Assembly (NCBI GenBank): GCA_965202725.1
Contig: OZ241845.1
Location: 1,834,621-1,898,620, forward strand
Length of the DNA stretch: 64,000 nucleotides
DNA from: Candidatus Poribacteria bacterium
GTDB taxonomy: Bacteria; Poribacteria; WGA-4E; WGA-3G
Direction of reading: 5' to 3'
Shown here one piece after another: positions 11,490 to 32,732 of this stretch (the stretch's first letter is position 1; every line of letters starts with the position of its first letter). Position numbers and translations under genes: made by a program. The notes under the pieces were generated by a model. The model was given only the letters and a program-made list of their open reading frames with translations. It was not told the DNA's origin and did no database searches.

Positions 11490-11507
11490 TTTTGAATTCG
11501 GTTACAA

Positions 11508-11537
11508 GGGCAGGTCGTTGTACCTGCCCTTTTTTTA
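11508..11537 (+). terminator. Rho-independent terminator
   Basis: Hairpin 'gggcaggt cgtt gtacctgccc' followed by T7. Confidence 0.55.
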
Positions 11538-11559
11538 TGGAAGTTACCCGATGTGTCGT

Positions 11560-11665
11560 ATCATCAATTTTGCACAACCTAATAGGTTATGCTACATATC
11601 TCACAGGGCTATCCTTCACACAACCTAACAGGTTATGCTACACAGCTCACAGGGCTACTCTGAAT
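11560..11665. repeat. Copies of the dispersed hairpin repeat family (core CACAGCCTAACAGGCTATGCTAC)
   Basis: Two to three diverged copies ('cacaacctaataggttatgctac', 'cacaacctaacaggttatgctac'). Confidence 0.6.
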
Positions 11666-12757
11666 ATAGCACTTTACAATATCAATAATCAGGGCGATGT
11701 CGTTGCGAGCAGATTCCAGCGAAGTGTAGCACGTTTCAGCGCCTATGATACAGGCGTGGAAGTGCCGCAATTCCCGTACAAATGCGCTATCCCATTCAAC
11801 GGCTGGCGTTTTGCTATATGTTGTACCATCGGGGTCTATCCCGTGTATCGTTACCTCTGACAAAATACCGCGTGAAAAACCTGTCGGATAGGAGACAATC
11901 ACGCGTTTGTTATCCCCATAGATTTCCAATGTCTCTCTAAAGTCCCAGAGATCTGGTAGGTCTACCCATGTCGCGACACAGCGAGCACCGTTCGGATAGG
12001 CGAACACTATCGTCACCCCGCGTCCTTCGGCCCAGACCTCCACGCTAACGATCTCCCTCGGCGGCCCGAGCATCACCCTTAAGCTATAGATGTCGTGGAT
12101 CATACTGCCAGCGAGTAGATAGAACACTCGCTGCGCTTTGCTGTGGCGATCGCGATCAAGCCGGGTTTGGGATAACACGTCTCCAATGGCTTCCGCCTGT
12201 GCTTTTTCACGCGCCGCACCTGCAGGTTTTAACGCGTCAGGCGGTACGTCGTCAAACCGTTCAACATCAAATTGACTCAGGTGCAAACTATTATTCGGAT
12301 GAAGGTGATTAATCTGAACAAAGCGGTAGCTTTCCATTGTGTCTACCTCGCGCTTAGCAAGTTGGAAAGCAGGGTCATGCACCTTCATATAACCGGCTTG
12401 CGCGATCGTCCCGGCTTGACGTTGTGCGGTTAGCATAGCATCTATTTCCTGAAGCGAAAAACAGACAGGTTTTTCGATAAAGACATGCTTCCCGGCTTCA
12501 AACGCAGCGAGTGCGACCTCTGTTTTCGGATCGCCATGACAAAGTAAAACGGCATCTACATCGGTAGCGAGCAATTTGTTGAAATCTGTTACGTATTGCG
12601 GCACATGGAACCGTTTAGCAACTGCTCGCGCCGCACCGACAGAGAAGTCACAGACGATCTGAACCTCAAATTCCCGATGGAGTGTGTTGAGATTCGGGAG
12701 ATGATGTACCTGCGCAATCGCACCACACCCGATAACACCTATCCGTATACGACTCAT
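11633..12757 (-). CDS. Gfo/Idh/MocA-family NAD(P)-dependent oxidoreductase
   Basis: N-terminal Rossmann 'IRIGVIGCGAIAQVHHLP', and 'EKPV' at the end of the dinucleotide-binding domain. Start placed at 'MSRIRIG'. Confidence 0.8.
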   Translation of the reverse strand: MSRIRIGVIGCGAIAQVHHLPNLNTLHREFEVQIVCDFSVGAARAVAKRFHVPQYVTDFNKLLATDVDAVLLCHGDPKTEVALAAFEAGKHVFIEKPVCFSLQEIDAMLTAQRQAGTIAQAGYMKVHDPAFQLAKREVDTMESYRFVQINHLHPNNSLHLSQFDVERFDDVPPDALKPAGAAREKAQAEAIGDVLSQTRLDRDRHSKAQRVFYLLAGSMIHDIYSLRVMLGPPREIVSVEVWAEGRGVTIVFAYPNGARCVATWVDLPDLWDFRETLEIYGDNKRVIVSYPTGFSRGILSEVTIHGIDPDGTTYSKTPAVEWDSAFVRELRHFHACIIGAETCYTSLESARNDIALIIDIVKCYIQSSPVSCVA

Positions 12758-18541: not shown

Positions 18542-18872
18542 GTTTCACTTCCCTTCGAGCGGGAAAAGTTATTCAAAGCAGAAAGTGAAAAAGTGTTCTA
18601 AAAGCTGTATAGTTGCAAGTTAGGAGCTCTCCTCCATACCCGCAACAACTTGCAAACTTTAGACACTTCCAAACTTTCCAAGTTTCACTTCCCTTCGAGC
18701 GGGAAAGCCTTTCAAAGACGCACGTATCGGGTGTATTGATGAGTGTCGCAACTTTAGTGTTTTAATTCCCTTCGAACGGGAACGTCTATCCAAAGTCAAA
18801 AGCGTGTCGTTTAGCCCGGATGGAATATCAGCTGTGTTTTAATTCCCTTCGAACGGGAACGTCTATCCAAAG
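18542..18872 (-). CRISPR. CRISPR array 2: short degenerate array, 4 repeat copies, variant repeat sequence
   Basis: Repeats at 18836-18872 and 18759-18795 (gttttaattcccttcgaacgggaacgtctatccaaag), 18682-18717 (gtttcacttcccttcgagcgggaaagcctttcaaag) and 18542-18578. A 105-bp insert between the last two repeats carries the same 70-bp trailer element found after array 1. Confidence 0.7.
18612..18680. repeat. 70-bp array-trailer element with internal inverted repeat (copy inside array 2)
   Basis: 'agttgcaagttaggag...caacaacttgcaaactttagacacttccaaactttcc', near-identical to 19421-19490. Confidence 0.6.
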
Positions 18873-19040
18873 TCAATTAATTATACATTTTTCTATATAC
18901 AATTTGCAAGCCTGAAGTACTCACAACGGCTAACCGCCTTTCCAAACAAACCAACAACGTCCGAGATGCCTGATGAACGGGCTGACACTTTATCACAGGT
19001 TGATAAAGACAGCATTGTCCCCCACTGTTTGGATACTTTA

Positions 19041-19069
19041 ATGATACGACAATTTTTTGCATAAGTCAA
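19041..19069 (-). promoter_or_regulatory. Leader promoter for array 2 (A-tract, TTGACT-N17-TATCAT, minus strand)
   Basis: The minus strand reads aaaaaaaCTTGACT tatgcaaaaaattgtcg TATCAT. The same module is present at three other sites in the island. Confidence 0.5.
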
Positions 19070-19124
19070 GTTTTTTTCACGCTAACCGCGAACCTTAGAA
19101 ATAGTTAGGGCTTACGCGGGCTGC

Positions 19125-19250
19125 TCTGTTGTAGCATAACCTGTTAGGTTGTGTGGATAGGCTGCTTGTGTTTTTTCACACATCACCACATCCTATTCAT
19201 AGTTAGCCTCATGCGGGCTGCTCTGTCGTAGCATAACTTGTTAGGGTGTG
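19125..19250. repeat. Two diverged copies of the dispersed hairpin repeat between the arrays
   Basis: 'gtagcataacctgttaggttgtg' and 'gtagcataacttgttagggtgtg', each preceded by 'ttagggcttacgcgggctgctctgtt'. Confidence 0.55.
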
Positions 19251-19420
19251 CCTACAGAATGCAGGTGCGCTTTCACAAGATTTTGACGAAAGCCAAGACA
19301 ATCAGCCCGCCGCTTAACGTTAGGTTTCCGGACTTCACTGTTTTTAAAATCCACGACGGGGGCATCTGGGGCAATTTCCTATATTTATACCCCCGAATCA
19401 CCATATAGATACCAAAGTTG

Positions 19421-19490
19421 CAAGTTGGGAGATATCCTACATACCCACAACAACTTGCAAACTTTAGACACTTCAAAACTTTCCACACGC
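19421..19490. repeat. 70-bp array-trailer element (copy directly after the last repeat of array 1)
   Basis: Near-identical to 18612-18680. Inverted repeat agttgcaagtt / aacttgcaaact. Confidence 0.6.
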
Positions 19491-22400
19491 GTTTCAATTC
19501 CCTTCGAGCGGGAAAGTCTATTCAAAGGTAGTGATTGGCTGTGGTGATGAAGATATGATGGACAAAAAAGTTTTAATTCCCTTCGAGCGGGAAAGTCTAT
19601 TCAAAGGGAGCAGTGACATGTTTCTCTTCGCAGAGTGAGGCAGAGTTCCAATTCCCTTCGAGCGGGAAAGTCTATTCAAAGTAATCATCGCCATGGTCGT
19701 AGTAATGGGAGCTGTGGTAGATGTTTCAATTCCCTTCGAGCGGGAAAGTCTATTCAAAGAAGTACCACTCGAGGTACTCAGAGTGGCAACTTTCTGTGTT
19801 TCAATTCCCTTCGAGCGGGAAAGTCTATTCAAAGATATTGGAAACAAGGTTGGTGGGACTCGAGTCTAAGGAAACCTGGTTTCAATTCCCTTCGAGCGGG
19901 AAAGTCTATTCAAAGACTGGTTGCGGTGATGAGGATATCGACGGACAAAAAAGTTTTAATTCCCTTCGAGCGGGAAAGTCTATTCAAAGGCACTTGCTCT
20001 TTCCGGAGCCTGTGGTGGTTGATGGCAAGATGTGTTTCAATTCCCTTCGAGCGGGAAAGTCTATTCAAAGAGGTTGTGGTGAAGGAATTGAAACCCCCGT
20101 CTCTGTGTTTCAATTCCCCTCGAGCGGGAAAGTCTATTCAAAGATATTGGAAACAAGGTTGGTGGGACTCGAGTCTAAGGAAACCTGGTTTCAATTCCCT
20201 TCGAGCGGGAAAGTCTATTCAAAGTGGTCGTAGTAGTTGGTTGCGGTGATGAGGATCTAAACTTGTTTTAATTCCCTTCGAGCGGGAAAGTCTATTCAAA
20301 GGTTGATATAAATTATACTACATCATCAGTAAAAAGTCAAGTGGTTTCAATTCCCTTCGAGCGGGAAAGTCTATTCAAAGACCTCGGTTACGTCTCCTAC
20401 AGCAAAAACTACCGCCTCGGTTCCGGAGTTTCAATTCCCTTCGAGCGGGAAAGTCTATTCAAAGACAAAACATACAGTTCAACGACAATCGGGGCGCTGA
20501 ATATGTGTTTCAATTCCCTTCGAGCGGGAAAGTCTATTCAAAGAGGTTCAACTGGAAGCAATAGCCAGGATTATTGTTTCAATTCCCTTCGAGCGGGAAA
20601 GTCTATTCAAAGGCGGGTTAAGCCTCGGTATAACGGCGGGTCTTGTTTCCATTCCCTTCGAGCGGGAAAGTCTATTCAAAGTAAAAAAGGCCCCGCTAGG
20701 AGAAAAGAATTGTTGAAAAAGGTTTCAATTCCCTTCGAGCGGGAAAGTCTATTCAAAGGCGTTGGGACCAGATCATGTCAAAGAGATTGGCATGATCGGT
20801 TTCAATTCCCTTCGAGCGGGAAAGTCTATTCAAAGTATCATCCACCAGGGGAACTCGAATACATCCCCTTTTAGTTTCAATTCCCTTCGAGCGGGAAAGT
20901 CTATTCAAAGTTGGGACCAGATCATGTCAAAGAGATTGGCATGATCGGGTTTCAATTCCCTTCGAGCGGGAAAGTCTATTCAAAGGTCGAGACCGATTGC
21001 CAAAACCTGATCTCCTCTTTAGTTTCAATTCCCTTCGAGCGGGAAAGTCTATTCAAAGAAGGCAAGGGGGACACGGCTGTTGCCGTGCGTTTCAATTCCC
21101 TTCGAGCGGGAAAGTCTATTCAAAGGAAAAATTGAAACAGACGACCTCTCGCGGCGCCAGATTCGTTTCAATTCCCTTCGAGCGGGAAAGTCTATTCAAA
21201 GCATTCTCCAATCCAAAGTTCCCTATTGCGGCACTGGCAGTGTTTCAATTCCCTTCGAGCGGGAAAGTCTATTCAAAGCGCAAGGAGAAAAATTGAAACA
21301 GACGACCTCTCACGTTTCAATTCCCTTCGAGCGGGAAAGTCTATTCAAAGTTGAGAAGGTTGGGTGGGTGAGTCCTTAGCGGTACGTGTAGCGTTTCAAT
21401 TCCCTTCGAGCGGGAAAGTCTATTCAAAGACACCTCACGAAAACGAATTCTGCCACTGCTTTGTAGGTTTCAATTCCCTTCGAGCGGGAAAGTCTATTCA
21501 AAGTTAAGAAATACCACTTAGGGTGCGAAAACGGGCTCTACTAGTTTCAATTCCCTTCGAGCGGGAAAGTCTATTCAAAGTTTCTGATGAAGGAGAGGCT
21601 CAAAGAGATCCCACTCTGATGTTTCAATTCCCTTCGAGCGGGAAAGTCTATTCAAAGGAGGTCCGCGAGGATGCGGCAACCTTAGATCATGAGGTTTTGT
21701 TTCAATTCCCTTCGAGCGGGAAAGTCTATTCAAAGGGGGGAAGAGGAAACGTGCTGGAGATAAGCACACGCTCGTTTCAATTCCCTTCGAGCGGGAAAGT
21801 CTATTCAAAGGGGGGAAGAGGAAACGTGCTGGAGATAAGCACACGCTCGTTTCAATTCCCTTCGAGCGGGAAAGTCTATTCAAAGTGGACTCGTAATCGC
21901 CAAGCATATAGGAATTACACGTTTCAATTCCCTTCGAGCGGGAAAGTCTATTCAAAGTAGAATGCTTGTGTTTTCTGTGGTAGGCGGGACAGTTTCAATT
22001 CCCTTCAAGCGGGAAAGTCTATTCAAAGTCTGCACTGCGAAAAGAACCTCATCCAGGGGATAACAACGTTTCAATTCCCTTCGAGCGGGAAAGTCTATTC
22101 AAAGCAGAGGTTTTTCCGATTATGTCGCACACCGAGTGGTGCGAGTTTCAATTCCCTTCGAGCGGGAAAGTCTATTCAAAGTCTCTTACACCGCAGCGGT
22201 GAAAGAGATACAAGAGCTGCTAGAGAAGTTTCAATTCCCTTCGAGCGGGAAAGTCTATTCAAAGGATTTTTCGCTGGTCTCAAAGATGGCGGGAAACGGC
22301 ATGCGTTTCAATTCCCTTCGAGCGGGAAAGTCTATTCAAAGTTGAGTGGGTGGGGGAGATGCCCACTGAGGTGGGGGAGTTTCAATTCCCTTCGAGCGGG

Positions 22401-23962
22401 AAAGTCTATTCAAAGAAGGTTCAAAAAAATAAAAAAAAAGAGACCTGAGTAAGTGTTTCAATTCCCTTCGAGCGGGAAAGTCTATTCAAAGGAAACCAAA
22501 AGTGTTATCAAAGCGCGGGGGACGCCGGGTTGTTTCAATTCCCTTCGAGCGGGAAAGTCTATTCAAAGATTCAGGTCCAGTCTCAGCGGATACCAGGGCG
22601 CAAGGTGTTTCAATTCCCTTCGAGCGGGAAAGTCTATTCATCCCCATTCCGGAAGACTGGAAATCCCCATTCCGGAGATATGACTGGGAGCGCGATATTC
22701 TCGTGTTTCAATTCCCTTCGAGCGGGAAAGTCTATTCAAAGAAAATCATGAGGATGAAAATAATCGATGGTACGTTGTACCAGTTTCAATTCCCTTCGAG
22801 CGGGAAAGTCTATTCAAAGTTGTACACGAAAATAGCACGAGATTGGATCAAGGCGAAACGTTTCAATTCCCTTCGAGCGGGAAAGTCTATTCAAAGCACT
22901 AGGAGGAGAATTGAAAAAGATCTCATGTGGTGGCGTGTTTCAATTCCCTTCGAGCGGGAAAGTCTATTCAAAGTTCCTTGAGAAGAAGGTTGGGCAGGTT
23001 TTTTGCAGGTTTCAATTCCCTTCGAGCGGGAAAGTCTATTCAAAGTACAGAATAAAAATGAAAACCATCGATGGTACCTTGTACCATCCGTTTCAATTCC
23101 CTTCGAGCGGGAAAGTCTATTCAAAGGAGTGGGTGGGAGAGATGCCCACTGAGGTGAGGAATACCGAGGGTTTCAATTCCCTTCGAGCGGGAAAGTCTAT
23201 TCAAAGTGTCGGCACAAGGAAACTGGGTGTGGATGCCGTTAGTTTCAATTCCCTTCGAGCGGGAAAGTCTATTCAAAGACTTCTGGGAGTGGGCGGAACG
23301 GGTATGCACAACCAAACCAGAGTTTCAATTCCCTTCGAGCGGGAAAGTCTATTCAAAGGAGGAGGTTGTAATGACCATCAAAGAGGATTACAGGTTTCAA
23401 TTCCCTTCGAGCGGGAAAGTCTATTCAAAGGTTAGGTCTTTCACAGTTTTCACAGCATGGGCTCCACTGTTTCAATTCCCTTCGAGCGGGAAAGTCTATT
23501 CAAAGTAGTTACACAACTCTCAACAAGGGAGACCTGGGCATGTCTCGTTTCAATTCCCTTCGAGCGGGAAAGTCTATTCAAAGAGGTTGCCTCTGAGGAG
23601 ACTGATGAGATTGCTCTCGAAAGTTTCAATTCCCTTCGAGCGGGAAAGTCTATTCAAAGTGTCAATGAGTTAACCTTCGAGGAATTCACCAGGAAGTTTC
23701 AATTCCCTTCGAGCGGGAAAGTCTATTCAAAGGAATTGGGAAAAGAGAAGTCCAAAACTATTGTCAACAGTTTCAATTCCCTTCGAGCGGGAAAGTCTAT
23801 TCAAAGGAGTAAGAAAAGAGAGAAAGGCTTGCCACCCATAAAATGTTTCAATTCCCTTCGAGCGGGAAAGTCTATTCAAAGGTCTGAGGAAAGAATTCGC
23901 AAAGAAGAAATCAGAGCGAAAAATCGTTTCAATTCCCTTCGAGCGGGAAAGTCTATTCAAAG
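19491..23962 (-). CRISPR. CRISPR array 1: 59 repeats (37 nt; GTTTCAATTCCCTTCGAGCGGGAAAGTCTATTCAAAG on the plus strand) and 58 spacers of 35-50 nt
   Basis: Repeat starts were counted by hand at a period of about 74-78 bp. A few variant repeats occur (20107 cccct, 20645 gtttcc, 21992 ttcaag, and 22607 3'-degenerate). The transcribed orientation is inferred to be the minus strand: the reverse complement ends in ATTGAAAC after a TTCCC/GGGAA hairpin, the leader promoter is at 24196-24224, and the degenerate array lies at the low-coordinate side. Confidence 0.95.
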
Positions 23963-24195
23963 AGTCCCCATTTTAAGCCCAGTGAGGCCGTGGCTCCATA
24001 CACCCCAAACCAAACGAGAACTGCGCGGGGCTTTTTTCTTCCTAAAATTTACCCCCTAAAATCCCACGAACCCTTGTAAACATTGACCCAAACGGGAATG
24101 TTTAACAAAAAAACGTTTGAAGCAAGACATCATATGGGTTCCCGGTGATTTAAAACGCATTTGCACCCGATTGGAGAATCACGTTTGTATTTATA

Positions 24196-24224
24196 AGTAT
24201 ACCCTAAATTGGCGCATAAGTCAA
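24196..24224 (-). promoter_or_regulatory. Leader promoter for array 1 (A8, TTGACT-N17-TATACT, minus strand); leader runs about 23963-24188
   Basis: The minus strand reads aaaaaaaatTTGACT tatgcgccaatttaggg TATACT. It lies about 225 nt upstream of the first repeat. Confidence 0.55.
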
Positions 24225-24289
24225 ATTTTTTTTAAAGTAGGGGCATTTATAGTAGATGTCGGAATTTAGGGCTTACGCAGGCTGATCTT

Positions 24290-24760
24290 TTGTAGCACAT
24301 CCCCTTGTTTGCGGGGAGCAGGGGGGTTATGCATGCAGAACCCCTCGCCTGCGAGGCGCTGGGGCTATAAAGGAGGCACAGCTTAACAGGAAACTATGCT
24401 ACAAAGGAAGAAGACACAGCCTAACAGGCTATGCTACGAATACTGCACAGCCTAACAAATCAATTTGCCCCTGAGCTATCCCCTGCGGACTAGCCTAACA
24501 GGTTATGCTACAACTTAAAACACAGCCTAACAGGCTATGCTACAACTTAAAACACAGCCTAACAGGCTATGCTACGAATACTGCACAGCCTAACAGGCTA
24601 TGCTACGAATACTGCACAGCCTAACAGGCTATGCTACAAAAGACACAGACACAGCCTAACAAGCTATGGTACAGATGCACAGCCTAACAGGAAACTATGG
24701 TACAAAGAAGAAGCCCCCCGCTTGCGGGGGGGCCTTCCCCTTGCTTGCGGAGGCGTGGAC
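24290..24760. repeat. Repeat cluster between the array 1 leader and cas1
   Basis: About nine copies of CACAGCCTAACAGGCTATGCTAC, spaced 30-40 bp apart. They are flanked by GC-rich hairpins ('ccccttgtttgcggggagcagggggg' and 'gccccccgcttgcgggggggc ... ccccttgcttgcgg'). Confidence 0.8.
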
Positions 24761-24763
24761 CTT

Positions 24764-25756
24764 TTAGGCACGAATGAGGAAGGATTTGTATGCTGGCTCT
24801 TCACCTGTCACCACGCGAGCCAGATGCCTGACCTGTAGCTCAATCGAGCGGAGATAGGTCGTTTTCTCGTTGCGCGTCGGGTGTTGGAACGTCTGCTGCA
24901 TCCGCCCATGGTACCCTTTAAGGAATCGATCCAAAGCTGCCTTGGTGAAACGGATACCTTTGTTCGTCTGCTCGAAATCTTCCGGTTGCACTCGCTTGTG
25001 ATTGACAAGCGATAACACGTATCCATCTACAATAATCTGACGGAACTCTTCCATCAGGTCCGAGGCGAGGGCTGCATGTCCGTGCTTGGGTTGATGAAAG
25101 TAGCCGCAGTATGGATCGAACCCGACGACATGGGTGAAAGTGTAAACGTGGTTGTGTAAGAGGGTATAGCCGAGTGAAAGCATCGCGTTAATTGGGTCAG
25201 GTGGTGGTCGGAATTGTCGCGTTGTGAAGCCCCACTCGTGGCGTAGCAATTGTCGGAATGCCCGATAATAGGCGGCTGCGCCGGCCCCTTCGTATCCGAG
25301 CAGGGATTCCAAATTCTTCGCGCGGTCAAGTTTTTGCACGGTTTGCCGCACAGAACTGATTGCTGACTTAACCTCGGCGGTTTGGGTGCGTTGGCGTTGG
25401 CAAAATCGGGCAGCGTTTGTGAGTTTACCGCGAATAAAACATTTCGCCAACCCCAGGCAATACTTTGAATCTGCAGCAAGGGTGTACTGTTGTCGTCGAA
25501 TGCGTGTATCTTTGGCATAAGCCGGTTGGAGTTTCCCCTTGTATGTCCCCCGTGAGGAGAGAAAGGAGACGGGTATGTTTTTATCGAGCAGGTATCCCAT
25601 CGTCGGTGTTGTGATGTGTCCGTTGCCGAAAATGACGACCTCATCGAGCTGGACGATTGGGATTTCTTGAAGGACTTCGCGTTCTTTTTTTACGATAACT
25701 TGGTTGCCGGATTTGTGGAGCATTGCGCCTTGTTGGGTGATGTAAAGGATTGCCAT
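24764..25756 (-). CDS. cas1: CRISPR-associated endonuclease Cas1
   Basis: 330 aa. Typical N-terminal 'LYITQQGAMLHKSGNQVIV' and the conserved 'GFDPYxGxxH' acidic/His block. The gene sits next to the array leader. Confidence 0.9.
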   Translation of the reverse strand: MAILYITQQGAMLHKSGNQVIVKKEREVLQEIPIVQLDEVVIFGNGHITTPTMGYLLDKNIPVSFLSSRGTYKGKLQPAYAKDTRIRRQQYTLAADSKYCLGLAKCFIRGKLTNAARFCQRQRTQTAEVKSAISSVRQTVQKLDRAKNLESLLGYEGAGAAAYYRAFRQLLRHEWGFTTRQFRPPPDPINAMLSLGYTLLHNHVYTFTHVVGFDPYCGYFHQPKHGHAALASDLMEEFRQIIVDGYVLSLVNHKRVQPEDFEQTNKGIRFTKAALDRFLKGYHGRMQQTFQHPTRNEKTTYLRSIELQVRHLARVVTGEEPAYKSFLIRA

Positions 25757-25799
25757 TTAATGCCTCCGATGTCATGTAAGTTTGATTTTTAAAGGTTGT

Positions 25800-25975
25800 T
25801 ACACAGGTTTTTAGCATCCCCCCTGCTTGCGGGGGGGCAGGGGGGGTCTCCCCTTGCTTGCGGGCTGCAGGTTTTTAGCATCCCCCCTGCTTGCGGGGGG
25901 CAGGGGGGGGGTATCCCCTTACTTGCGGGGAGGCGGTTGTGCCACAGCAGATGCACAGCCTAACAGGCTATGCTA
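25800..25975. repeat. GC-rich hairpin repeats and one dispersed-repeat copy between cas1 and the RT gene
   Basis: A direct duplication of about 65 bp. Each copy contains 'tttttagcatcccccctgcttgcgggggggcagggggg', an inverted repeat cccccctgc / gcagggggg. Then comes 'cacagcctaacaggctatgctac'. Confidence 0.7.
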
Positions 25976-27355
25976 CGAATGTTTTAAACGTTTGCTAAAT
26001 CGTGTGGCGATGTTTTTGCCTCGCTGTGTTACAAGTTTGCCTGAGCGTACGACGTGTGATGTGCCGTTTTTCAGGGCTTGCTGGATGTGGTTTTGTAAGC
26101 CCGCTGCCCGTGAGTCGGGAACGGGTCGGTAGCAGCCGTCGCTATCAAAGATGTGTCCGAGGAATTCAACCCCGGTGTCGAAGTGCGCGATTTGGGTCTT
26201 TTTGGGATTGACAGCTAACTTCAGCCGCCCGAGGTGTTTCTGGGCGTACTCACAGGCGTGCTGTGCTCTGCCTTCACTTCGGCAAAGGAGGAGCAGGTCG
26301 TCTGCGTATCGGACGAGCCGCATTCCTGATCGCGTCATCGCCTTATCGAACGGATGCAGATAGATATTCGCGAACAGGGGCGAGAGGGGCGAGCCTTGGA
26401 GAATTCCGATTTTCCGAGGACGGTTCATCCGCTCCTTCACGATGCTGCCTACAGTCGGTGCAGCCAGTGCAGCGACTACCAACGGGGCAGCGATGAGCAG
26501 GTGCTTCGCTGCAAGCGGTTTCCACAACCGTTTGGCGTTGGCAAGGAGTAGCAGCAGCCCATCTCTCCCTAAGTTCGTCAACAGCTCTTTTCCTGTTGGG
26601 GTTAAGTGACCATCCGTTGTGGCAATTTCGGATGCGTCAACATCCCAGTCGTCTTCTGTAAGTGCGTTCTCATATTCGCTATAATGCCCAGCATCTGGCG
26701 TGCGATGCAGTATTTGGTTAATCACGTTCTCAACACCTTCACCGATATGATGCACCGTGTTTTCGAGATGCGTGCCCCATGTCGGGAATTTGGGGGGTTG
26801 TAGAACGCCGCCCATATCCAGCCACATCTGGATGAGCCGAATAATCGCGGGTTCTTTCAGGGATGCCCGCAGAAACCGCATCAGGATGTGCGTATCCATT
26901 TCATCAAAGAAGTTCTCAATATCGGCATGAACGACCCATTCGTAGCCTTCTGATCGGATCGCGGCGACTTGCGCGATTGCATGCGGCACCCCACGGTTGG
27001 GGCGATACGCGAAACTACACGCCAGAAATTTTGCCTCGTAGATCGGTGAGATGAGATCACAAACGGCACGCTGCACAATCCGATCTTTTAAGGTTAGCAC
27101 TGAGAGTTCTCGCGTACTCCCGTTGGATTTCTGCAGTGTGAATTTTTGAACAGGGAGTGGGTAATACCGCTCTTCGGCAAGCTCACGTGAGAGTTGACGG
27201 AGATGTTTCGCGAGGTTTGCCTCGAACTGTTGAAGGGTGACACCATCGCTACCGGGACCGCTCTTGTTGCTGCGGACCTTCCGCCATGCGGCATGTAGGG
27301 TTTCGGGTTGACAGAGTTGTGTGGAGAGTGAAATACTTGGTGTACAATTAAGCAC
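25973..27355 (-). CDS. Stand-alone CRISPR-associated reverse transcriptase (group-II-intron-like RT)
   Basis: RT domain 0 'LHAAWRKVRSNKSGPGSDGVT', domain 2 'FAYRPNRGVPHA', and YADD box 'LVRYADDLLLLC'. A large insertion separates the fingers from the palm. Start assigned to GTG at 27355 with AGGAGG 6 nt upstream. The ORF tool's extra 11 N-terminal codons would be encoded by the RBS. Confidence 0.85.
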   Translation of the reverse strand: MLNCTPSISLSTQLCQPETLHAAWRKVRSNKSGPGSDGVTLQQFEANLAKHLRQLSRELAEERYYPLPVQKFTLQKSNGSTRELSVLTLKDRIVQRAVCDLISPIYEAKFLACSFAYRPNRGVPHAIAQVAAIRSEGYEWVVHADIENFFDEMDTHILMRFLRASLKEPAIIRLIQMWLDMGGVLQPPKFPTWGTHLENTVHHIGEGVENVINQILHRTPDAGHYSEYENALTEDDWDVDASEIATTDGHLTPTGKELLTNLGRDGLLLLLANAKRLWKPLAAKHLLIAAPLVVAALAAPTVGSIVKERMNRPRKIGILQGSPLSPLFANIYLHPFDKAMTRSGMRLVRYADDLLLLCRSEGRAQHACEYAQKHLGRLKLAVNPKKTQIAHFDTGVEFLGHIFDSDGCYRPVPDSRAAGLQNHIQQALKNGTSHVVRSGKLVTQRGKNIATRFSKRLKHS

Positions 27356-27394
27356 GAATGTCCTCCTGGTTATTACAGGCAACGGCACGGGCTC

Positions 27395-28690
27395 CTGATA
27401 GGAAACTATGCTATAGCAGATGCACAGCCTAACAGGAAAACACGCTACAAAAAGACACAGACACAGCCTAACAAGCTATGCTACAGAAGATGCACAGCCT
27501 AACAGGCTATGCTACGAAATAGGTTATGCTACGAAATAGGTTATGCTATAGAAGTGGCACAGCCTGACAGGCTATGCTACGAAATAGGCTATGGTACAGA
27601 AGAGTGACCTGTGTGAATTAAGTGGAACTGTTTTGGGATGATTGAAAAAGGTACATGACATTGATTAGACGTTTGTATAGAGTCTGCAAGGAATGAAAAG
27701 GATAGTAAAAAATTTAAAAGGATGGTAGCATAGCCTGTTAGGCTGTGCCTTAGGATGTCCTGGTAGCATAGCCTGTTAGGCTGTGCCTTAGTTGTAGCAT
27801 AGTTTGTTGTAGCATAGCCTGTTAGGCTGTGTCTTAGCCCGTCAGCTGAGTGTGTATTTTTTCGTAGCATAGCCTGTTAGGCTGTGTCTTAGGATGTCCT
27901 GGTAGCATAGCCTGTTAGGCTGTGTCTTAGCCCGTCAGCTGAGTGTGTATTTTTTCGTAGCATAGCCTGTTAGGCTGTGTCTTAGGATGTCCTGGTAGCA
28001 TAGCCTGTTAGGCTGTGCCTTAGCCCGTCAGCTGAGTGTGTATTTTTTCGTAGCATAGCCTGTTAGGCTGTGTCTTAGGATGTCCTGGTAGCATAGCCTG
28101 TTAGGCTGTGTCTTAGCCCGTCAGCTGAGTGTGTATTTTTTCGTAGCATAGCCTGTTAGGCTGTGTCTTAGGATGTCCTGGTAGCATAGCCTGTTAGGCT
28201 GTGCCTTAGGATGTCCTGGTAGCATAGCCTGTTAGGCTGTGTCTTAGGATGTCCTGGTAGCATAGCCTGTTAGGCTGTGTCTTAGGATGTCCTGGTAGCA
28301 TAGCCTGTTAGGCTGTGCCTTAGTTGTAGCATAGTTTGTTGTAGCCTGGTTTCCTGTTAGGCTGTGCCTTAGCTCGTCAGCTGAGTGTGTATTTTTTCGT
28401 AGCATAGCCTGTTAGGCTGTGTCTTAGGATGTCCTGGTAGCATAGCCTATTAGGCTGTGCCTTAGTTGTAGCATAGTTTGTTGTAGCATAGCCTGTTAGG
28501 CTGTGCCTTAGGATGTCCTGGTAGCATAGCCTGTTAGGCTGTGTCTTTTTGTAGCCTAGTTTCCTGTCAGGCTCTGCCTTAGCCCGACTGCTTTAACGGA
28601 TCACATCTCATTAAGACAAGTCTTGTGATTAAGACCGTGATGCACAGCCTGACAGGCTATGCTACGAAACAGGCCATGCTACAACAGAGG
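27395..28690. repeat. Large tandem cluster of the dispersed hairpin repeat (about 35 copies) between the RT and SWIM genes
   Basis: 27395-27610 is in CACAGCCTAACAGGCTATGCTAC orientation. 27720-28690 is in the opposite orientation, with perfect 38-bp periodic units 'ggtagcatagcctgttaggctgtgtcttaggatgtcct' and about 80-bp higher-order units. The linkers are themselves repeated, so this is not a CRISPR array. Confidence 0.85.
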
Positions 28691-28693
28691 GCA

Positions 28694-30163
28694 TTAAATG
28701 TCGGCGATGATTCGTAGCAGCAGTCTCTTGCGGGAATGTTGCTTGCGGAAATGCGTCAGATAAGCAACCCACTGATCTTCCTTATTAAGATGCTGATAGA
28801 GTTGCTTCAAGTCAATTAAGTACCGCTGAGCCCTCTCGTAACCCTCTTGCTTTCGAGAGAGGACGATCTGTTCAATGCATTTTTGATAGAGAACGATAGT
28901 CGTCCCTGACACATGATGTCTGAGGACGCTAAACAATTTTTCAGTGAATCCTGACATACGTTTTGCGATGGGACTCTGTAAGAGGTGCCAGTATTCGTCA
29001 ACAGCGAGGGGCAATTCTGCAACGGCTTTCCACGCGGCATCGTCGCGCTGCTGGGTAAAGAGGGCGTGTATGAACCGATAGTTTTCGCCCTCGGCTTGCG
29101 AAAAACGGAGATACTCTTCGGCCCTATTCGCCTGATCATATAAGGCAAGTAGCAGGCGAACATGCGCTTGGCGATCTGGGCTTCCATCGAGGTGTTGTTC
29201 AAGCGTTGTTTGTAAACTCCCTATTTCTTGCGTGGGGCAGAGCTGTTCAAGGAGACGAGTCAGGGGTAACGTAAAAATCGGCTCTCCATCGAAACTGAGC
29301 TGCAATAGCATTCGGCAGTGTTCAAGGGTCTCGGGGGGTTGCTGGACATTCATGGCGACTCGCGCGAACGTTTTTGTGCATTTATTGACGAATCTCGGTA
29401 ATTCACCCCTCTGGAGCGTGTCGGGGGAACGAACAACGGATTGACGGATGAGGGCGTGCAGAATTATCAGCGCGAACTCCGATTCACCCAGCTGCAGAAG
29501 GGACTCGGCATGATGCCGCAGTTTTTCCAGCTGAACGAGAACGTTACGCAGCTGGTGCTGTTCAAGAAAATCCCGTCCAAAAATACGGTCAACGCGTTCA
29601 CTATAGACCTCAACGGTAGCGGGAAGTGTTGCTTTGTGTGCGGTTGTTCTACTGTCTACATCCACCTGATCTAGCATATCTGCATAAGCAGATTGTGATC
29701 CGAAACGGCTTGCATGATCGCAGAAGTCTACATCCACCTGATCTGGCATATCTGCATAAGTCAACACGACTGGCACTAACCTTGGCGTTCGTTTCAACAA
29801 TTCTGAGATAATTTGTAGAAGGCTACGCTTCGGTTTCTCAGCAAGCCTGGTGAGTAAGGCATCCATGTCACAGATTCCCTCTGGTTCATGGGCGTAGGTT
29901 AGCAGGAGCGCGACGATGTGTTTACAATCTCCTCCCCAATCATAAGGGCAGGAACACTCAGCAGCGGCGATCCCTGTCGGCATCAACGCTACAGAAACCT
30001 GATATGGGGCTCGGGCTGTCCCCTGGCACGTTGCGGACAGCGTCCAGCCGTGACAGACCGGGTTACCGATCGCGCCGGCGTGAAAGTATGCTAAGCCTCG
30101 CCTGAAGCTCTGGTCTGTACAGCGAGATCGAACCTGATCGGAGGTTAGGTTTGGAAGTTGCAT
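28694..30163 (-). CDS. SWIM zinc-finger domain protein, translationally coupled to cas2
   Basis: About 490 aa. SWIM CxCxnCxH signature 'CSCPYDWGGDCKHIVALLL' at about residues 73-91. The rest is mostly helical. There is an internal 13-aa tandem duplication 'YADM(P/L)DQVDVD'. The minus-strand context TGA-t-ATG with the cas2 stop shows coupling. Confidence 0.6.
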   Translation of the reverse strand: MQLPNLTSDQVRSRCTDQSFRRGLAYFHAGAIGNPVCHGWTLSATCQGTARAPYQVSVALMPTGIAAAECSCPYDWGGDCKHIVALLLTYAHEPEGICDMDALLTRLAEKPKRSLLQIISELLKRTPRLVPVVLTYADMPDQVDVDFCDHASRFGSQSAYADMLDQVDVDSRTTAHKATLPATVEVYSERVDRIFGRDFLEQHQLRNVLVQLEKLRHHAESLLQLGESEFALIILHALIRQSVVRSPDTLQRGELPRFVNKCTKTFARVAMNVQQPPETLEHCRMLLQLSFDGEPIFTLPLTRLLEQLCPTQEIGSLQTTLEQHLDGSPDRQAHVRLLLALYDQANRAEEYLRFSQAEGENYRFIHALFTQQRDDAAWKAVAELPLAVDEYWHLLQSPIAKRMSGFTEKLFSVLRHHVSGTTIVLYQKCIEQIVLSRKQEGYERAQRYLIDLKQLYQHLNKEDQWVAYLTHFRKQHSRKRLLLRIIADI

Positions 30164-30164
30164 A

Positions 30165-30440
30165 TCAAACGACAATTGTTTGCGGAGCTGAGGTCACTTC
30201 ACCGACAGCAGGCACTTCCACGCGCCCGGCGCAATTACCACAGAACGTGTAGTAGCGAACTGAATCTTCAGCAAGATCAATAACACGCGCAACGGCATTC
30301 TTAAGTGCCTCATACTGTCTCCGGTTGAGATGTGCTTCAAATACGCTGTACTGGACACGCGTGCCGAACCCTTTAAGCACTTTTGCGAGTCGGTTGCGCC
30401 TGTGATCGTCAGGAATATCGTAAGTGATGACATAGAGCAT
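30165..30440 (-). CDS. cas2: CRISPR-associated endoribonuclease Cas2
   Basis: '[35 protein letters not shown]' is a canonical Cas2 N-terminus. Start placed at the second Met (ATG at 30440) with GGAGGT 7 nt upstream. The first Met of the ORF overlaps the promoter -10 element. Confidence 0.85.
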
Positions 30441-30465
30441 CAATTTACCTCCAGTTTGGTTTATA

Positions 30466-30494
30466 AGCATACCCTAAATTTGCACATAAGTCAA
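30466..30494 (-). promoter_or_regulatory. cas2-SWIM operon promoter (TTGACT-N17-TATGCT, minus strand)
   Basis: The minus strand reads aaaaTTGACT tatgtgcaaatttaggg TATGCT. About 20 nt further is GGAGGT, then the cas2 ATG. It shares about 40 nt with the array 1 leader promoter region. Confidence 0.55.
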
Positions 30495-30519
30495 TTTTCC
30501 CGACAGATTTAATTTGACT

Positions 30520-31045
30520 CCTAAGCGAGAAGGAAGGTATAATCTAAGATATGCTGTTTATTTCTGTCATCATTCACGTCAAGAGATGTGATACCCGTAG
30601 GGGCGAGGTTTCCTCGCCCGATAGAGGAGACGGGTTGGGAAACCCAACCCCTACGAGAAGTAAATATCGCTCCGCTGTTGTAGCATGGTTTCCTGTCAGG
30701 CTGTGCCATCTGTATTGCTCTTCCGTAGCATAGCCTGTTAGGCTGTGTTAGCTTGTAGCATATCCTGTTGTAGCATAGCCTGTTAGGCTGTGTTAGCTTG
30801 TAGCATGGTTTCCTGTCAGGCTGTGTTAGCTTGTAGCATATCCTGTTGTAGCATGGTCTCCTGTTAGGCTGTGCCATCTGTATTGCTCTTCCGTAGCATA
30901 GTTTCCTGTCAGGCCGTGTTAGCTTGTAGCATGGTTTCCTGTTAGGCTGTGTTAGCTTGTAGCATAGTTTCCTGTCAGGCTGTGCAATCTTACCCCCACA
31001 ACCCCACCCAAGCAAGGGCGGGGGAGAGTGGCTACAAAAAGGCAT
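30520..31045. repeat. Repeat cluster between cas2 and the decarboxylase gene
   Basis: About ten copies of GTAGCAT(A/G)G(CC/TTTCC)TGT(T/C)AGGC(T/C)GTG, then a GC-rich hairpin element at about 30994-31030. The 174-aa ORF here is a repeat translation. Confidence 0.8.
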
Positions 31046-31100
31046 CAGGTGTCCGGCCTACTAACATTAATGAAGTCCAACAATTGGAGATCGGAAGTAC

Positions 31101-32732
31101 GTGAACTATCGCGATATTTTAAAAGACATTCGCCAGGCTTTTCCGCAACCTGTAGCAGACCCTATCCATAATTCCTATTTCGTGCATTCTATCATGCGCG
31201 CCTTGGACCAGGTCGATGAACTCAAAACACATCTGCCAATGCTCGGCAGCGTCATCCCTGCTGATTTTGCAGCAGCGCGCCAGACAACCCTACCTGAAAC
31301 GATGTCCTCCGTTAAGGATGTCACAACCGACCTCGTGAGCTACCTCCGAGGTATGACGATCTTCGGACACCCGCGCACGCAACAGAACGTTGTTGCCCCA
31401 CCAACAATTCCAAGCCTGATCGGGGTGCTCCTCGCGTCTCTCTACAATCCAAACCTCGCCTGGGATGAATACAGTCGACTAGTGGCATTGGCTGAGGTTG
31501 AGGTCATCGGGATGACCTCAAAAATGGTGGGATACGATCCAGAGGCATCAGGCGGCGTATTTACTTTCGGCGGCACGGGAACAACCTTCTACGGGGTAAA
31601 ACTTGGCTTGGAAAAAGCTGACCCAGGCACGGTCGAAAACGGCACCTCTGAAGACGTAGTTGTGTTTGTGTCAGATACAGGCCACTATTGCGCCACGAAC
31701 ATCGTCGGTTGGCTCGGCATCGGAACAAAGAATCTCATCACGATCCCAACGACATTTGAAAACGAAATGGATCTCGAGGTACTGGCACAAGAAACCCGCA
31801 AGGCACTGGAAAACGGAAAAAAGATCGCCGCTATTATTGCTACATTAGGCACCACGGACGCCTTTGGATTGGACGACTTAGCGCGCATCGTGGCGTTACG
31901 GGATAAACTTGTCGAGGACTTCAAACTGGACTATCAACCACACGTTCACGCAGACGCGGTTATCGGATGGGCATGGTCGGTCTTTAACGCTTACGATATT
32001 GAGGAGAACCCCCTAGCGTTTCGCCCGCGCACCCTCCGGGCGTTAGCAGGCACACGCCGGCGGATACGGCATTTAGCCCTCGCCGATTCAATCGGCATTG
32101 ACTTTCACAAAACCGGGTTTGCACCCTACATCTCGAGTCTTCTCCTCGTCAAAAACCGAACGGATCTAGATTTGGTGAAACGGCACCCCGAACAGATGCC
32201 CTATCTTTATCACTTCGGAGATTACCGGCCCGGTATGTACACACTTGAGACTTCAAGGGCAGGAACGGGGGTTCTCGCTGCCCTTGCGAACCTCCGACTC
32301 TTTGGCGAGCAGGGATTGCAAACGATTCTTGGACATATCGTTGAAATGGCCCAGCTCCTGCGCGAACACCTTGGCGGACACGCAGCCACAACCGTGGTCA
32401 ACCGAGAGAACTTCGGAACCGTCACCCTGTTCCGCGCCTATCCAGACGGCGTGGATACTTTCCCAATTCAAAATCAGGAATTTAAAGACCCTGCATATCG
32501 CGACAGCTTGCGCAAACACAACGCGTATAACCAAAAGATTTTTGAATATGTCCAAGCGGAAGCCATGGAGGGCAGGGGGGTGGTTATCTCCACAACGGAC
32601 TGTTACCGATACACTGCTTACGGTGAACCGATTGTCGCGCTAAAGTCATATATCCTCTCCCCGTTCGTCGATGAAGTGGACGTGGAGACTGTGGTCACCA
32701 AGGTGCTGGAAGCGCGGGAGAAGGTTGATTAA
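31101..32732 (+). CDS. PLP-dependent group II amino-acid decarboxylase (tyrosine/glutamate/diaminobutyrate decarboxylase family)
   Basis: 543 aa. The 'DSIGIDFHKTGFAPY' block matches the S-x-HK PLP-lysine motif of group II decarboxylases. Substrate is unknown. Confidence 0.7.
   Translation: MNYRDILKDIRQAFPQPVADPIHNSYFVHSIMRALDQVDELKTHLPMLGSVIPADFAAARQTTLPETMSSVKDVTTDLVSYLRGMTIFGHPRTQQNVVAPPTIPSLIGVLLASLYNPNLAWDEYSRLVALAEVEVIGMTSKMVGYDPEASGGVFTFGGTGTTFYGVKLGLEKADPGTVENGTSEDVVVFVSDTGHYCATNIVGWLGIGTKNLITIPTTFENEMDLEVLAQETRKALENGKKIAAIIATLGTTDAFGLDDLARIVALRDKLVEDFKLDYQPHVHADAVIGWAWSVFNAYDIEENPLAFRPRTLRALAGTRRRIRHLALADSIGIDFHKTGFAPYISSLLLVKNRTDLDLVKRHPEQMPYLYHFGDYRPGMYTLETSRAGTGVLAALANLRLFGEQGLQTILGHIVEMAQLLREHLGGHAATTVVNRENFGTVTLFRAYPDGVDTFPIQNQEFKDPAYRDSLRKHNAYNQKIFEYVQAEAMEGRGVVISTTDCYRYTAYGEPIVALKSYILSPFVDEVDVETVVTKVLEAREKVD

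Follow-up and report, generated by a model that had tools for sequence, protein, structure and literature searches.

The adaptation end of a CRISPR-Cas locus of type III in Candidatus Poribacteria, a sponge symbiont, probably consists of two conserved units, one running from the reverse transcriptase (RT) gene through cas1 and the leader to the array and the other a mobile cas2-SWIM pair, with a free-standing RT of the G2L2 type and with REP-like repeats that have colonised the gaps. Within the window, by which we mean the whole 64,000-nt stretch of DNA analysed, the minus-strand order is cas2, SWIM, repeats, RT, hairpin block, cas1, repeats, leader and array, and Cas10 and RAMP genes upstream of RT and cas1 mark the locus as type III. 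An earlier reading of the same DNA, made from the letters alone (the sequence-only reading), was partly supported as a whole: its unfused, CRISPR-linked RT and its invading repeats held up, whereas the unusual layout and the three repeat-defined units that it had described did not.

Profile matches and translations located every gene where that reading had put it, all on the minus strand: cas1 at 24764-25756 (PF01867, 5.8e-94), the RT at 25973-27355 (PF00078, 3.9e-31, matched in two stretches), the SWIM protein at 28694-30163 (PF04434, 2.4e-05), in which an N-terminal SWIM domain is followed by a C-terminal alpha-helical repeat, and cas2 at 30165-30440 (PF09827, 1.7e-24). The cas2 ORF extends to 30470, and its match to relatives begins at residue 11. 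cas2 and SWIM are two ORFs, the cas2 stop codon being separated by 1 nt from the SWIM ATG, and the divergent neighbour of cas2 is a PLP decarboxylase gene; a 174-aa ORF called within the spacer between these two genes, in the region of 30660-31000, is spurious. The RT begins, as had been proposed, with its own GTG, located 6 nt past an AGGAGG and in register with the start in relatives. The SWIM-RT gap measures 1,338-1,341 nt and the RT-cas1 gap 216-219 nt, and repeats make up approximately 480 nt to 0.5 kb of the 804 nt between cas1 and the array. Contigs from four DNA runs, compared with 24050-31100, were 100% identical over the genes and broke off where the repeats cluster.

Sequence comparison places the RT as a free-standing member of the CRISPR-associated lineage derived from group II introns, and not as an intron maturase. 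The 460-aa protein is group-II-intron-like, with YADD intact in the translation, and it matches the GsI-IIC RT in the PDB (6ar1, 1.8e-40), whose fold agrees with the predicted one; the two share fingers and palm and motifs 0-7, but the Poribacteria RT is without a ribozyme or an X/maturase, DNA-binding or endonuclease domain and carries a large insertion before motif 4. No thumb domain was detected, and the model has a single low-confidence C-terminal helix at the thumb position. PDB 7kft, of the RT-Cas1 and Cas6-RT-Cas1 fusion integrase group (Marinomonas MMB-1, Vibrio vulnificus, Thiomicrospira), matches the RT at 6.3e-34. In a scan of the RT family (142 representatives at 50% identity), the fusions were RT-Cas1 (35), RT-AEP (10), RT-Cas4 (3) and Cas2-RT (3), and GIIM was the sole extra domain in only 3 of the 142. 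The Poribacteria RT thus shares its lineage, as well as its type III context, with the RT-Cas1 and Cas6-RT-Cas1 fusions, from which it differs in not being covalently joined to Cas1 or Cas6, and the earlier description of it as unfused and CRISPR-linked was borne out. Identity as a group II intron RT was rejected: a search of 19000-40000 on both strands for an intron RNA, which the sequence-only reading had named as part of what would refute it, returned no Rfam intron family at E values up to 1, a profile search gave no match of the RT to GIIM (PF08388), and the TIGR04416 score of 261.8 bits falls below the cut-off of 300.

The large insertion reported earlier between fingers and palm is real, comprising 134 residues between G182 and G317 (about 183-316), between motifs 3a and 4, a region that is shorter than 20 residues in 86 of 143 aligned relatives. 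Its helices include an amphipathic one ('LGRDGLLL') and, approximately 10 residues before motif 4, a hydrophobic one rich in Gly and Ala. The insertion is under purifying selection, with dN/dS values of 0.04-0.14 over core and insertion that are rough because dS is saturated. In the RT clade the insertion spans 79-226 aa and ends in a hydrophobic helix, and this clade of free-standing RTs looks new. When an alignment of distant insertion-bearing RTs was used to scan metagenomes, it recovered 79 loci, all with RTs lacking the insertion and only 3 with cas1; none of 2165 matching plasmid records covered at least 80% of the RT (tblastn), so that plasmids did not yield the insertion form, and the insertion alone, used as a query against a protein atlas, gave no usable match. 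Roughly 50 insertion-bearing RTs come from outside Poribacteria, on contigs of up to 47 kb, and one of 10 distant RTs looked up was from Blastocatellia. It is conceivable, although we consider it doubtful, that the RT is part of a separate clade of CRISPR RTs, so far undescribed and spanning several phyla (Poribacteria, Acidobacteria and metagenome lineages), whose members are never fused to a Cas domain and in which the conserved insertion would replace the covalent link by docking the RT onto Cas1-Cas2 or onto an accessory protein such as SWIM, or would tether it to the membrane. If this were true, it would represent a new coupling of reverse transcription to spacer integration through a docking insertion.

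The unit structure of the locus was apparent from 26 related genome loci, 24 of which come from species-level genomes of Candidatus Poribacteria. In 22 of the 24, cas1 follows a separate RT gene on the same strand; the remaining two end 0-588 nt past the RT, where the presence of cas1 cannot be judged. Identity across these loci was 76-90% for cas1 (22 loci) and 65-87% for the RT (24 species-level genomes), and the RT-cas1 gap ranged from 22 to 701 nt with a median of about 210. RT and cas1 therefore form one conserved unit (22 of 22 judgeable loci), and the claim that repeats delimit three units fails at this gap, which in L002 is only 22 nt long and holds a ribosome-binding site without any hairpin. 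cas2 and SWIM lie together on one strand in 14 relatives, no more than 10 nt apart in 11 of them, and the placement of the pair varies (upstream of the RT, behind the array on the opposite strand, or with the PLP decarboxylase gene between pair and RT); cas2-SWIM forms a unit of its own, which moves between genomes. SWIM is also found where an intact RT is missing, and 8 of 30 other RT-bearing genomes gave no SWIM match; it is therefore not an obligate partner of the RT. The SWIM-RT gap is 1341 nt in the window compared with 243-718 nt in 8 loci, and the cas1-array gap is 804 nt compared with 322-507 nt in 16 of 17 loci, so that the gaps of the window exceed those of its relatives by the size of its repeat clusters; the repeats did not create the separation of the genes. 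The two hits outside Poribacteria were a Cas6-RT-Cas1 fusion and an RT-TPR-AEP protein beside cas1-cas2.

The repeats filling these gaps are a GTAG-tagged, REP-like, extragenic family that is found genome-wide and is not specific to CRISPR. The 23-nt hairpin unit, GTAGCATAGCCTGTTAGGCTGTG, consists of an unpaired GTAG followed by an 8-bp stem with a 3-nt loop (RNA fold, -18.4 kcal/mol); among 18 distinct copies, drawn from the window and from 11 related loci (12 sources), 98.6% of cells are paired, and one stem pair covaries across genomes (G:C, C:G, A:U). We counted 427 copies with up to 3 mismatches in 165 clusters across the genome, 392 of them (92%) outside crude ORFs, which themselves take up 86% of the genome. 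The enrichment at the locus is beyond chance: 24000-31100, which is 0.15% of the genome, holds 31 of the 427 copies where about 2 would be expected, and the SWIM-RT cluster, with 22 copies, is the largest of the 165. Much of this local excess is explained by tandem amplification of 93-nt and 38-nt units. A REP density well above the intergenic average means that simple neutral colonisation may be an incomplete explanation. Clusters are mostly head-to-tail direct tandem arrays and not the alternating inverted dimers typical of BIMEs. The suggestion that the repeats are MITE-like invaders was correct in so far as they are invading elements of a mobile type, but not as to MITEs, a class that we rejected because the unit is a 23-nt hairpin in 38-nt and 93-nt head-to-tail units, where a MITE would span 100-500 bp, and no element bounded by terminal inverted repeats was seen. 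GTAG REPs have been described as 20-40 bp extragenic palindromes with an unpaired GTAG at one end, hundreds of copies and several families per genome, often just downstream of coding regions and probably transcribed (Di Nocera et al. 2013, PMC3733652; Nunvar et al. 2010, PMC2817692). The window family resembles them in its unpaired GTAG and palindrome, high copy number and extragenic position, and departs from them in its head-to-tail arrays and in the lack of a RAYT flanked by it among the 6 PF01797 matches in the genome. Of these, 5 are copies of IS200/IS605 that have no REP closer than 1.6 kb, and the sixth is broken and lies beside a different GTAG hairpin.

Along the locus, a cluster 3' of cas1 (24285-24760, minus strand) lies in cas-gene orientation; one of its hairpins, at 24735-24711, is GC-rich, has a T-rich tail and resembles a terminator. 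The RT-cas1 spacer (25757-25972, minus strand) holds a REP copy, G-rich hairpins of a second genome-wide family and then the cas1 ribosome-binding site; in the REP copy, at 25950-25972, the TAG within the GTAG head serves as the stop codon of the RT. Further copies, inserted at 27400-27600 (minus strand), separate the ribosome-binding site of the RT from a conserved block that lies upstream of the gene. In the largest cluster (27724-28690), the majority of copies run opposite to the cas genes and are organised in higher-order 93-nt and 38-nt tandem units, and two copies in cas-gene orientation sit just past the SWIM stop codon. The gap described earlier as a 1.3-kb repeat cluster does contain repeats, but it is not uniform, with the conserved non-repeat block inside it at about 27600-27720. 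A cluster of the REP variant GTAGCATGGTTTCCTGT[CT]AGGCTGTG lies at 30660-31000, in the spacer from which cas2 and the PLP decarboxylase gene diverge. In relatives, the same spacers contain the window's REP family plus other GTAG-hairpin families. As a separate observation, REPs overlap a stop codon and are swapped at a fixed GTAG.

Three other explanations were weighed against this one. That the hairpin clusters are dedicated processing or termination sites of the CRISPR module, dividing it into three separately regulated units, appears unlikely. The presence of the genome's largest cluster and of 31 of 427 copies at the locus would fit such a role, as would a REP at a fixed place approximately 29 nt after the end of the RT alignment, with homologous flanks, in L003, L004, L011, L013, L014 and L015, a stem that stays paired through double changes, an RT stop codon that falls inside a REP (window, L018, L023), and 30 terminator-like sites, mostly REP copies and some with T-rich tails, against 7.4 ± 2.8 in shuffled sequences. 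However, the same GTAG unit recurs in 165 clusters across the genome, relatives retain the genes without large clusters and, in L002, without an RT-cas1 hairpin, and unrelated GTAG-hairpin families fill the same spacers in other genomes, which fits repeated insertion better than a conserved device.

The other two explanations concern the RT. It is very unlikely to be another defence RT of the DRT, Abi or retron type that is merely co-located, with the conserved upstream block as its RNA partner: a strongly conserved non-coding block does lie 110-170 nt upstream in most relatives, the RT appears from its model to have no thumb and has an unexplained insertion, and NCBIfam returned weak matches to Drt2 and retron RTs, but these DRT and retron scores are far under their cut-offs (Drt2, 77 versus 390 bits), the upstream region gave 0 pairs, and so no consensus structure, when 18 sequences were folded with RNAalifold, and the linkage to cas1 and leader is constant. 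Least credible of all is an intron remnant or decaying retroelement that lies beside cas1 by accident and has no role in adaptation. Its best PDB and NCBIfam matches are indeed group II intron RTs, and three Poribacteria genomes (G162, G164, G175) carry broken or partial copies; against this, 19000-40000 contains no intron RNA, the protein has no GIIM domain, cas1 adjoins it at every judgeable locus, its sequence neighbours are mostly Cas-fused RTs, and it is preserved at 65-87% identity over 24 species-level genomes with YADD intact and a low, if rough, dN/dS.

The split layout, which the sequence-only reading took to be unusual, is a published one. The G2L2 group of Simon and Zimmerly (2008, PMC2602772) already comprised stand-alone CRISPR RTs whose cas1 lies 31-501 bp downstream; its later counterparts are clades 9 (Chloroflexi) and 13 (gamma- and delta-proteobacteria) of Toro et al. 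2018 (PMC6013744), in which the RT is unfused to Cas1. The headline layout has thus been known since 2008, and the repeats are an ordinary genome-wide REP-like family. The Poribacteria RT is likened to G2L2 and clades 9 and 13 by layout and domains: it is a group-II-like RT encoded by a separate gene in a type III locus, without intron RNA or a maturase domain and with cas1 shortly downstream (22-701 nt in the Poribacteria set, against the published 31-501 bp). It differs in its host, a phylum absent from the 137-sequence Table S1 of PMC6013744, in the pairing of cas2 with a SWIM protein, and in the 134-aa insertion between RT3a and RT4, of which the available text of PMC2602772 and PMC6013744 makes no mention. 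At title and abstract level, the papers found on Poribacteria with CRISPR, type III or RT, and on SWIM with Cas2 and RT, gave no description of this module.

In the explanation that we prefer, the RT would cooperate in trans with Cas1-Cas2, the integrase, and RNA would thereby become a further source of spacers; we infer this function by analogy with RT-Cas1 fusions, which capture RNA spacers. GTAG REP-like elements would repeatedly have landed in non-coding gaps and then expanded in tandem, and wherever they are transcribed they would most likely, like REPs elsewhere, form RNA stem-loops, either stabilising the message upstream of them or attenuating read-through. To our knowledge, the biochemistry of RNA-spacer acquisition so far is all on RT-Cas1 fusions. 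The value of the present locus lies in the large set of unfused CRISPR RTs that occur in nature, which come from 31 Poribacteria species genomes and from dozens of distant clusters at 50% identity and have in common a conserved insertion under selection and the lack of a thumb domain. A trans-acting RT raises the question of how an unfused enzyme finds the integrase, and it could provide a modular RT for RNA-recording tools.

The CRISPR array (18542-23962, minus strand) has 62 copies of a 37-nt repeat and is the only array of its repeat in the genome; its transcript is assigned to the minus strand, since ATTGAAAC stands at the end of the repeat's reverse complement. A 618-nt stretch (18873-19490) and a 180-nt stretch interrupt the array, leaving a short distal array behind the main one. 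When the spacers were compared with their own genome, spacer 26 (21202-21241) had one exact self-match, at 4531913-4531952 inside a 186-aa ORF; its crRNA is in the same sense as the ORF and would therefore not pair with its mRNA, and the match is compatible with an RNA and a DNA origin alike. Strand bias of type III spacers reflects selection for targeting as much as the route of acquisition.

The conserved non-coding block upstream of the RT (27600-27720, minus strand; core 27674-27715) is probably, from its conservation and position, the control region of the RT-cas1 unit, although on the RT strand it showed no fit to the sigma-70 consensus. A retron-like RNA or intron remnant upstream of the RT was dropped as a candidate after RNAalifold found no structure. 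The leader (23963-24230, minus strand) is conserved across Poribacteria and contains a sigma-70-like promoter at 24224-24196 (TTGACT, 17 nt, TATACT), and a promoter-like element (TTGACT, 17 nt, TATGCT) lies before cas2 at 30460-30498 on the minus strand. Going by these motifs, transcription would probably start at three places, namely the promoter before cas2, a putative paralogue of the leader promoter, the conserved block upstream of the RT, serving RT and cas1 together, and the leader promoter, and would probably end at the GC hairpin and T tract after cas1. Genome-wide there are just two copies of the 35-nt promoter-like element, one ahead of cas2 and the other in the leader, and they are 90% identical; this putative element common to cas2 and the leader looks new, and it is directly testable, as are the REPs that carry a stop codon and are swapped at GTAG.

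Every element and coordinate listed for this locus by the sequence-only reading was confirmed in the window, which sits in a 4.6-Mb genome made of one contig. Read along the minus strand, type III effector genes (Cas10, RAMPs, Csm6 and further CARF proteins, Cas6) come before the adaptation genes, and a PLP-dependent decarboxylase gene lies opposite to the cas genes (plus strand, 31101-32732). A cluster of a REP variant (30660-31000) and a promoter-like element (minus, 30494-30466) stand ahead of cas2 (minus, 30165-30440), and the gene for a 489-aa SWIM zinc-finger protein (minus, 28694-30163) begins 1 nt past the cas2 stop codon. Non-coding DNA of ~1,338-1,341 nt separates SWIM from the RT gene (minus, 25973-27355), whose GTG start is preceded by AGGAGG, and a hairpin-filled spacer of ~216-219 nt separates the RT from cas1 (minus, 24764-25756). 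Past cas1 lie ~480 nt of repeats that close with a GC hairpin and its T tract (24735-24711), then the leader promoter TTGACT-17-TATACT (minus, 24224-24196) and, beyond the leader, a CRISPR array of 62 repeat copies.

A scan for related loci, restricted to one genome per species, returned 26 loci, 24 of them from Poribacteria, with RT identities of 65-86% across the related Poribacteria loci; named relatives of the window RT were without exception Candidatus Poribacteria. In 22 of the 24 Poribacteria loci the RT has a gene of its own with a co-stranded cas1 behind it, and the remaining two stop 0-588 nt past the RT. The RT-cas1 gap in relatives spans 22-701 nt (median ~210), making the window (~219 nt) typical; the 22-nt gap of L002 holds a ribosome-binding site alone and resembles a tight operon. 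The cas2 and SWIM genes are co-stranded in 14 relatives, with a spacing of at most 10 nt in 11 of these, and in one database protein (P0221, 552 aa, on one 2.9-kb contig) Cas2 and SWIM are fused in frame. This pair is mobile in position among loci, lying directly 5' of the RT in 8, having an opposite-strand decarboxylase gene between itself and the RT in 4, and also occurring past the array on the opposite strand. The adaptation genes had been read as three units; the conserved RT-cas1 pairing and the relocating cas2-SWIM pair instead define two conserved units, and the split between adaptation genes is an ancestral state that has already been described.

The decarboxylase was also kept near the CRISPR adaptation genes in 10 of the 24 related loci besides the window (L002, L003, L004, L006, L011, L012, L018, L019, L020 and L023), with 75-92% identity between genomes. 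Its place and strand vary (SWIM/RT interval, cas6/cas2 interval, or past cas1 or the array), and it is retained either through a functional link or because the insertion site is conserved.

The hairpins that fill the intergenic spaces are ordinary REP-like colonists, though unusually dense at the window locus. The unit GTAGCATAGCCTGTTAGGCTGTG has 189 exact copies genome-wide and 427 at ≤3 mismatches, which group into 165 clusters and occupy both strands, and 392 of the 427 fall outside crude ORFs, which make up 86% of the genome. Its GTAG head leads into an 8-bp stem with a 3-nt loop, an architecture that agrees with the published GTAG-tagged REP superfamily (PMC3733652). When 18 distinct copies, drawn from the window and 11 related loci, were compared, 98.6% of cells paired, and one stem pair varied among G:C (8), C:G (5) and A:U (4). 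In related loci, the window's family and other GTAG-hairpin families occupy the same spacers; in the window, L018 and L023 the RT gene stops at the TAG of a GTAG head, and each of the three has its own hairpin beyond that head. In several other relatives the RT ORF terminates within the hairpin loop. What sets the window apart is cluster size, with a SWIM-RT distance of ~1,341 nt versus 243-718 nt in relatives and a cas1-array distance of 804 nt versus 322-507 nt; its large cluster consists of 93-nt and 38-nt units amplified in tandem. A second, G-rich hairpin family (106 strict matches genome-wide) occupies the RT-cas1 spacer. L005 shows an independent tandem expansion in the same spacer (11400-12060), where another GTAG hairpin unit (GTAGTAGCATAAACTTCCAGTTTGTGCGTCTTT) is repeated ~12 times head to tail. 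A search of the genome for a cognate REP-linked Y1 transposase (RAYT) of the window's family found none. Elsewhere on the contig, a GTAG hairpin belonging to another family (GTAGGTGCGGTTTCCTAACCGCAC) has a broken RAYT-like Y1-transposase gene with internal stops ~100 nt away (L032, G000:C1:1253155-1253439); this gene is possibly a defunct RAYT.

The 35-nt leader-promoter element has exactly one further copy in the genome (≤8 mismatches), directly 5' of cas2, where it is also found in the two closest relatives; more distant relatives carry a different, TTGACA-type promoter there. No promoter-like site was found ahead of cas1 on the minus strand of the window. A near-invariant block, TTACTATCCTTTT...GACTCTATA, lies 110-170 nt 5' of the RT in most relatives and accompanies the RT regardless of the upstream gene; in the window (27674-27715) inserted REP copies part it from the RT. 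A search for a consensus RNA fold of this block found none. Leader conservation spans ~240 nt. In the leaders of the window (23963-24195) and L001-L024, CGCGTTTGG-like motifs are conserved at three places, once in inverted orientation, and a further conserved block, GGAGCCACGGCC..CTGGGCTTAAAATGGGG, adjoins the first repeat; all are candidate integration-host or Cas1-Cas2 docking sites. The array itself is broken by a 618-nt stretch (18873-19490) in which REP copies occur together with a promoter-like site of the TTGACTTATGC type, the third such site; the short array left distal to it (18542-18872) has a putative leader of its own. Spacer 26 (21202-21241) matches the chromosome exactly (40/40 nt, G000:C1:4531913-4531952) inside a 186-aa ORF of secreted appearance; since crRNA and ORF have the same sense, the crRNA would not pair with the mRNA.

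The free-standing, Cas1-unfused layout of the window RT is shared with clades 9 and 13 of Toro et al. (PMC6013744), whose Table S1 lacks Poribacteria, and with the G2L2 RTs reported in 2008 by Simon and Zimmerly (PMC2602772). Searching 1.84 billion representatives gave 1,571 matches (E 1e-30 or better), and the top 150, less 8 fragments no longer than 254 aa, were scanned with Pfam (142 proteins). Fusions among these 142 comprised 35 RT-Cas1, 10 RT-AEP primase, 3 RT-Cas4 (P0281, P0302, P0370; 520-628 aa) and 3 Cas2-RT (P0347, P0364, P0392; 403-414 aa); the last two architectures were not described in the parts of the RT-CRISPR literature consulted. Of the two loci from outside Poribacteria, one has a Cas6-RT-Cas1 fusion and the other an RT-TPR-AEP protein adjoining cas1-cas2. 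A maturase (GIIM) domain alone occurred in just 3 of the 142, and Rfam, run on both strands of 19000-40000, returned no intron RNA, only two chance-level matches to animal lncRNA families. These results therefore speak against the alternative that the RT groups with intron RTs beside an intron RNA. By analogy with the fused relatives, we infer that spacers may be captured from RNA.

In the window RT, an insertion of 134 residues separates G182, where motif 3a ends, from G317 in motif 4. This interval is shorter than 20 residues in 86 of the 143 sequences aligned; in 55, window included, it spans 79 to 226, and no Cas, AEP or GIIM domain is fused to any of these 55. In a FastTree tree of the RT core with the insertion excised (265 columns, 142 sequences), 54 insertion-bearing tips fell under one ancestor spanning 58 tips, with modest local support (0.66); the distant members with names were Blastocatellia and Acidobacteria only. 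Within Poribacteria the insertion shows 73% identity and a dN/dS of ~0.14, compared with 0.04 and 0.08 for the cores and 0.28 for the C-terminal tail, all rough figures because dS exceeds 1. AlphaFold2 predicted a core (pLDDT >90) whose fold matches the GsI-IIC RT, low-confidence helices for the insertion (pLDDT 30-60) and a single long helix for the final 45 residues; no thumb domain was seen in the model. A Gly/Ala-rich hydrophobic stretch of 19 residues (Kyte-Doolittle mean ≥1.6), 8-17 residues ahead of motif 4, was found in 38 of the 55 insertion-bearing sequences versus 7 of 143 RT cores. This never-fused, insertion-bearing clade and the promoter common to leader and cas2 merit follow-up.

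RT matches (E 1e-40 or better) occurred in 36 of 176 Poribacteria genomes (31 near full length, 3 broken or partial, 2 of another, fused form). SWIM matches were found in 54 of the 176; many of these genomes have no intact RT, and several SWIM copies are interrupted by internal stop codons. Of the 30 other RT-bearing genomes, 22 have a SWIM match. In one Poribacteria genus (G045, G047-G052, G054, G056, G057), from which the RT is mostly missing, most SWIM copies share a similar internal TAG at residue ~180-370; these genes are pseudogenes or, alternatively, exist in recoded or split form.
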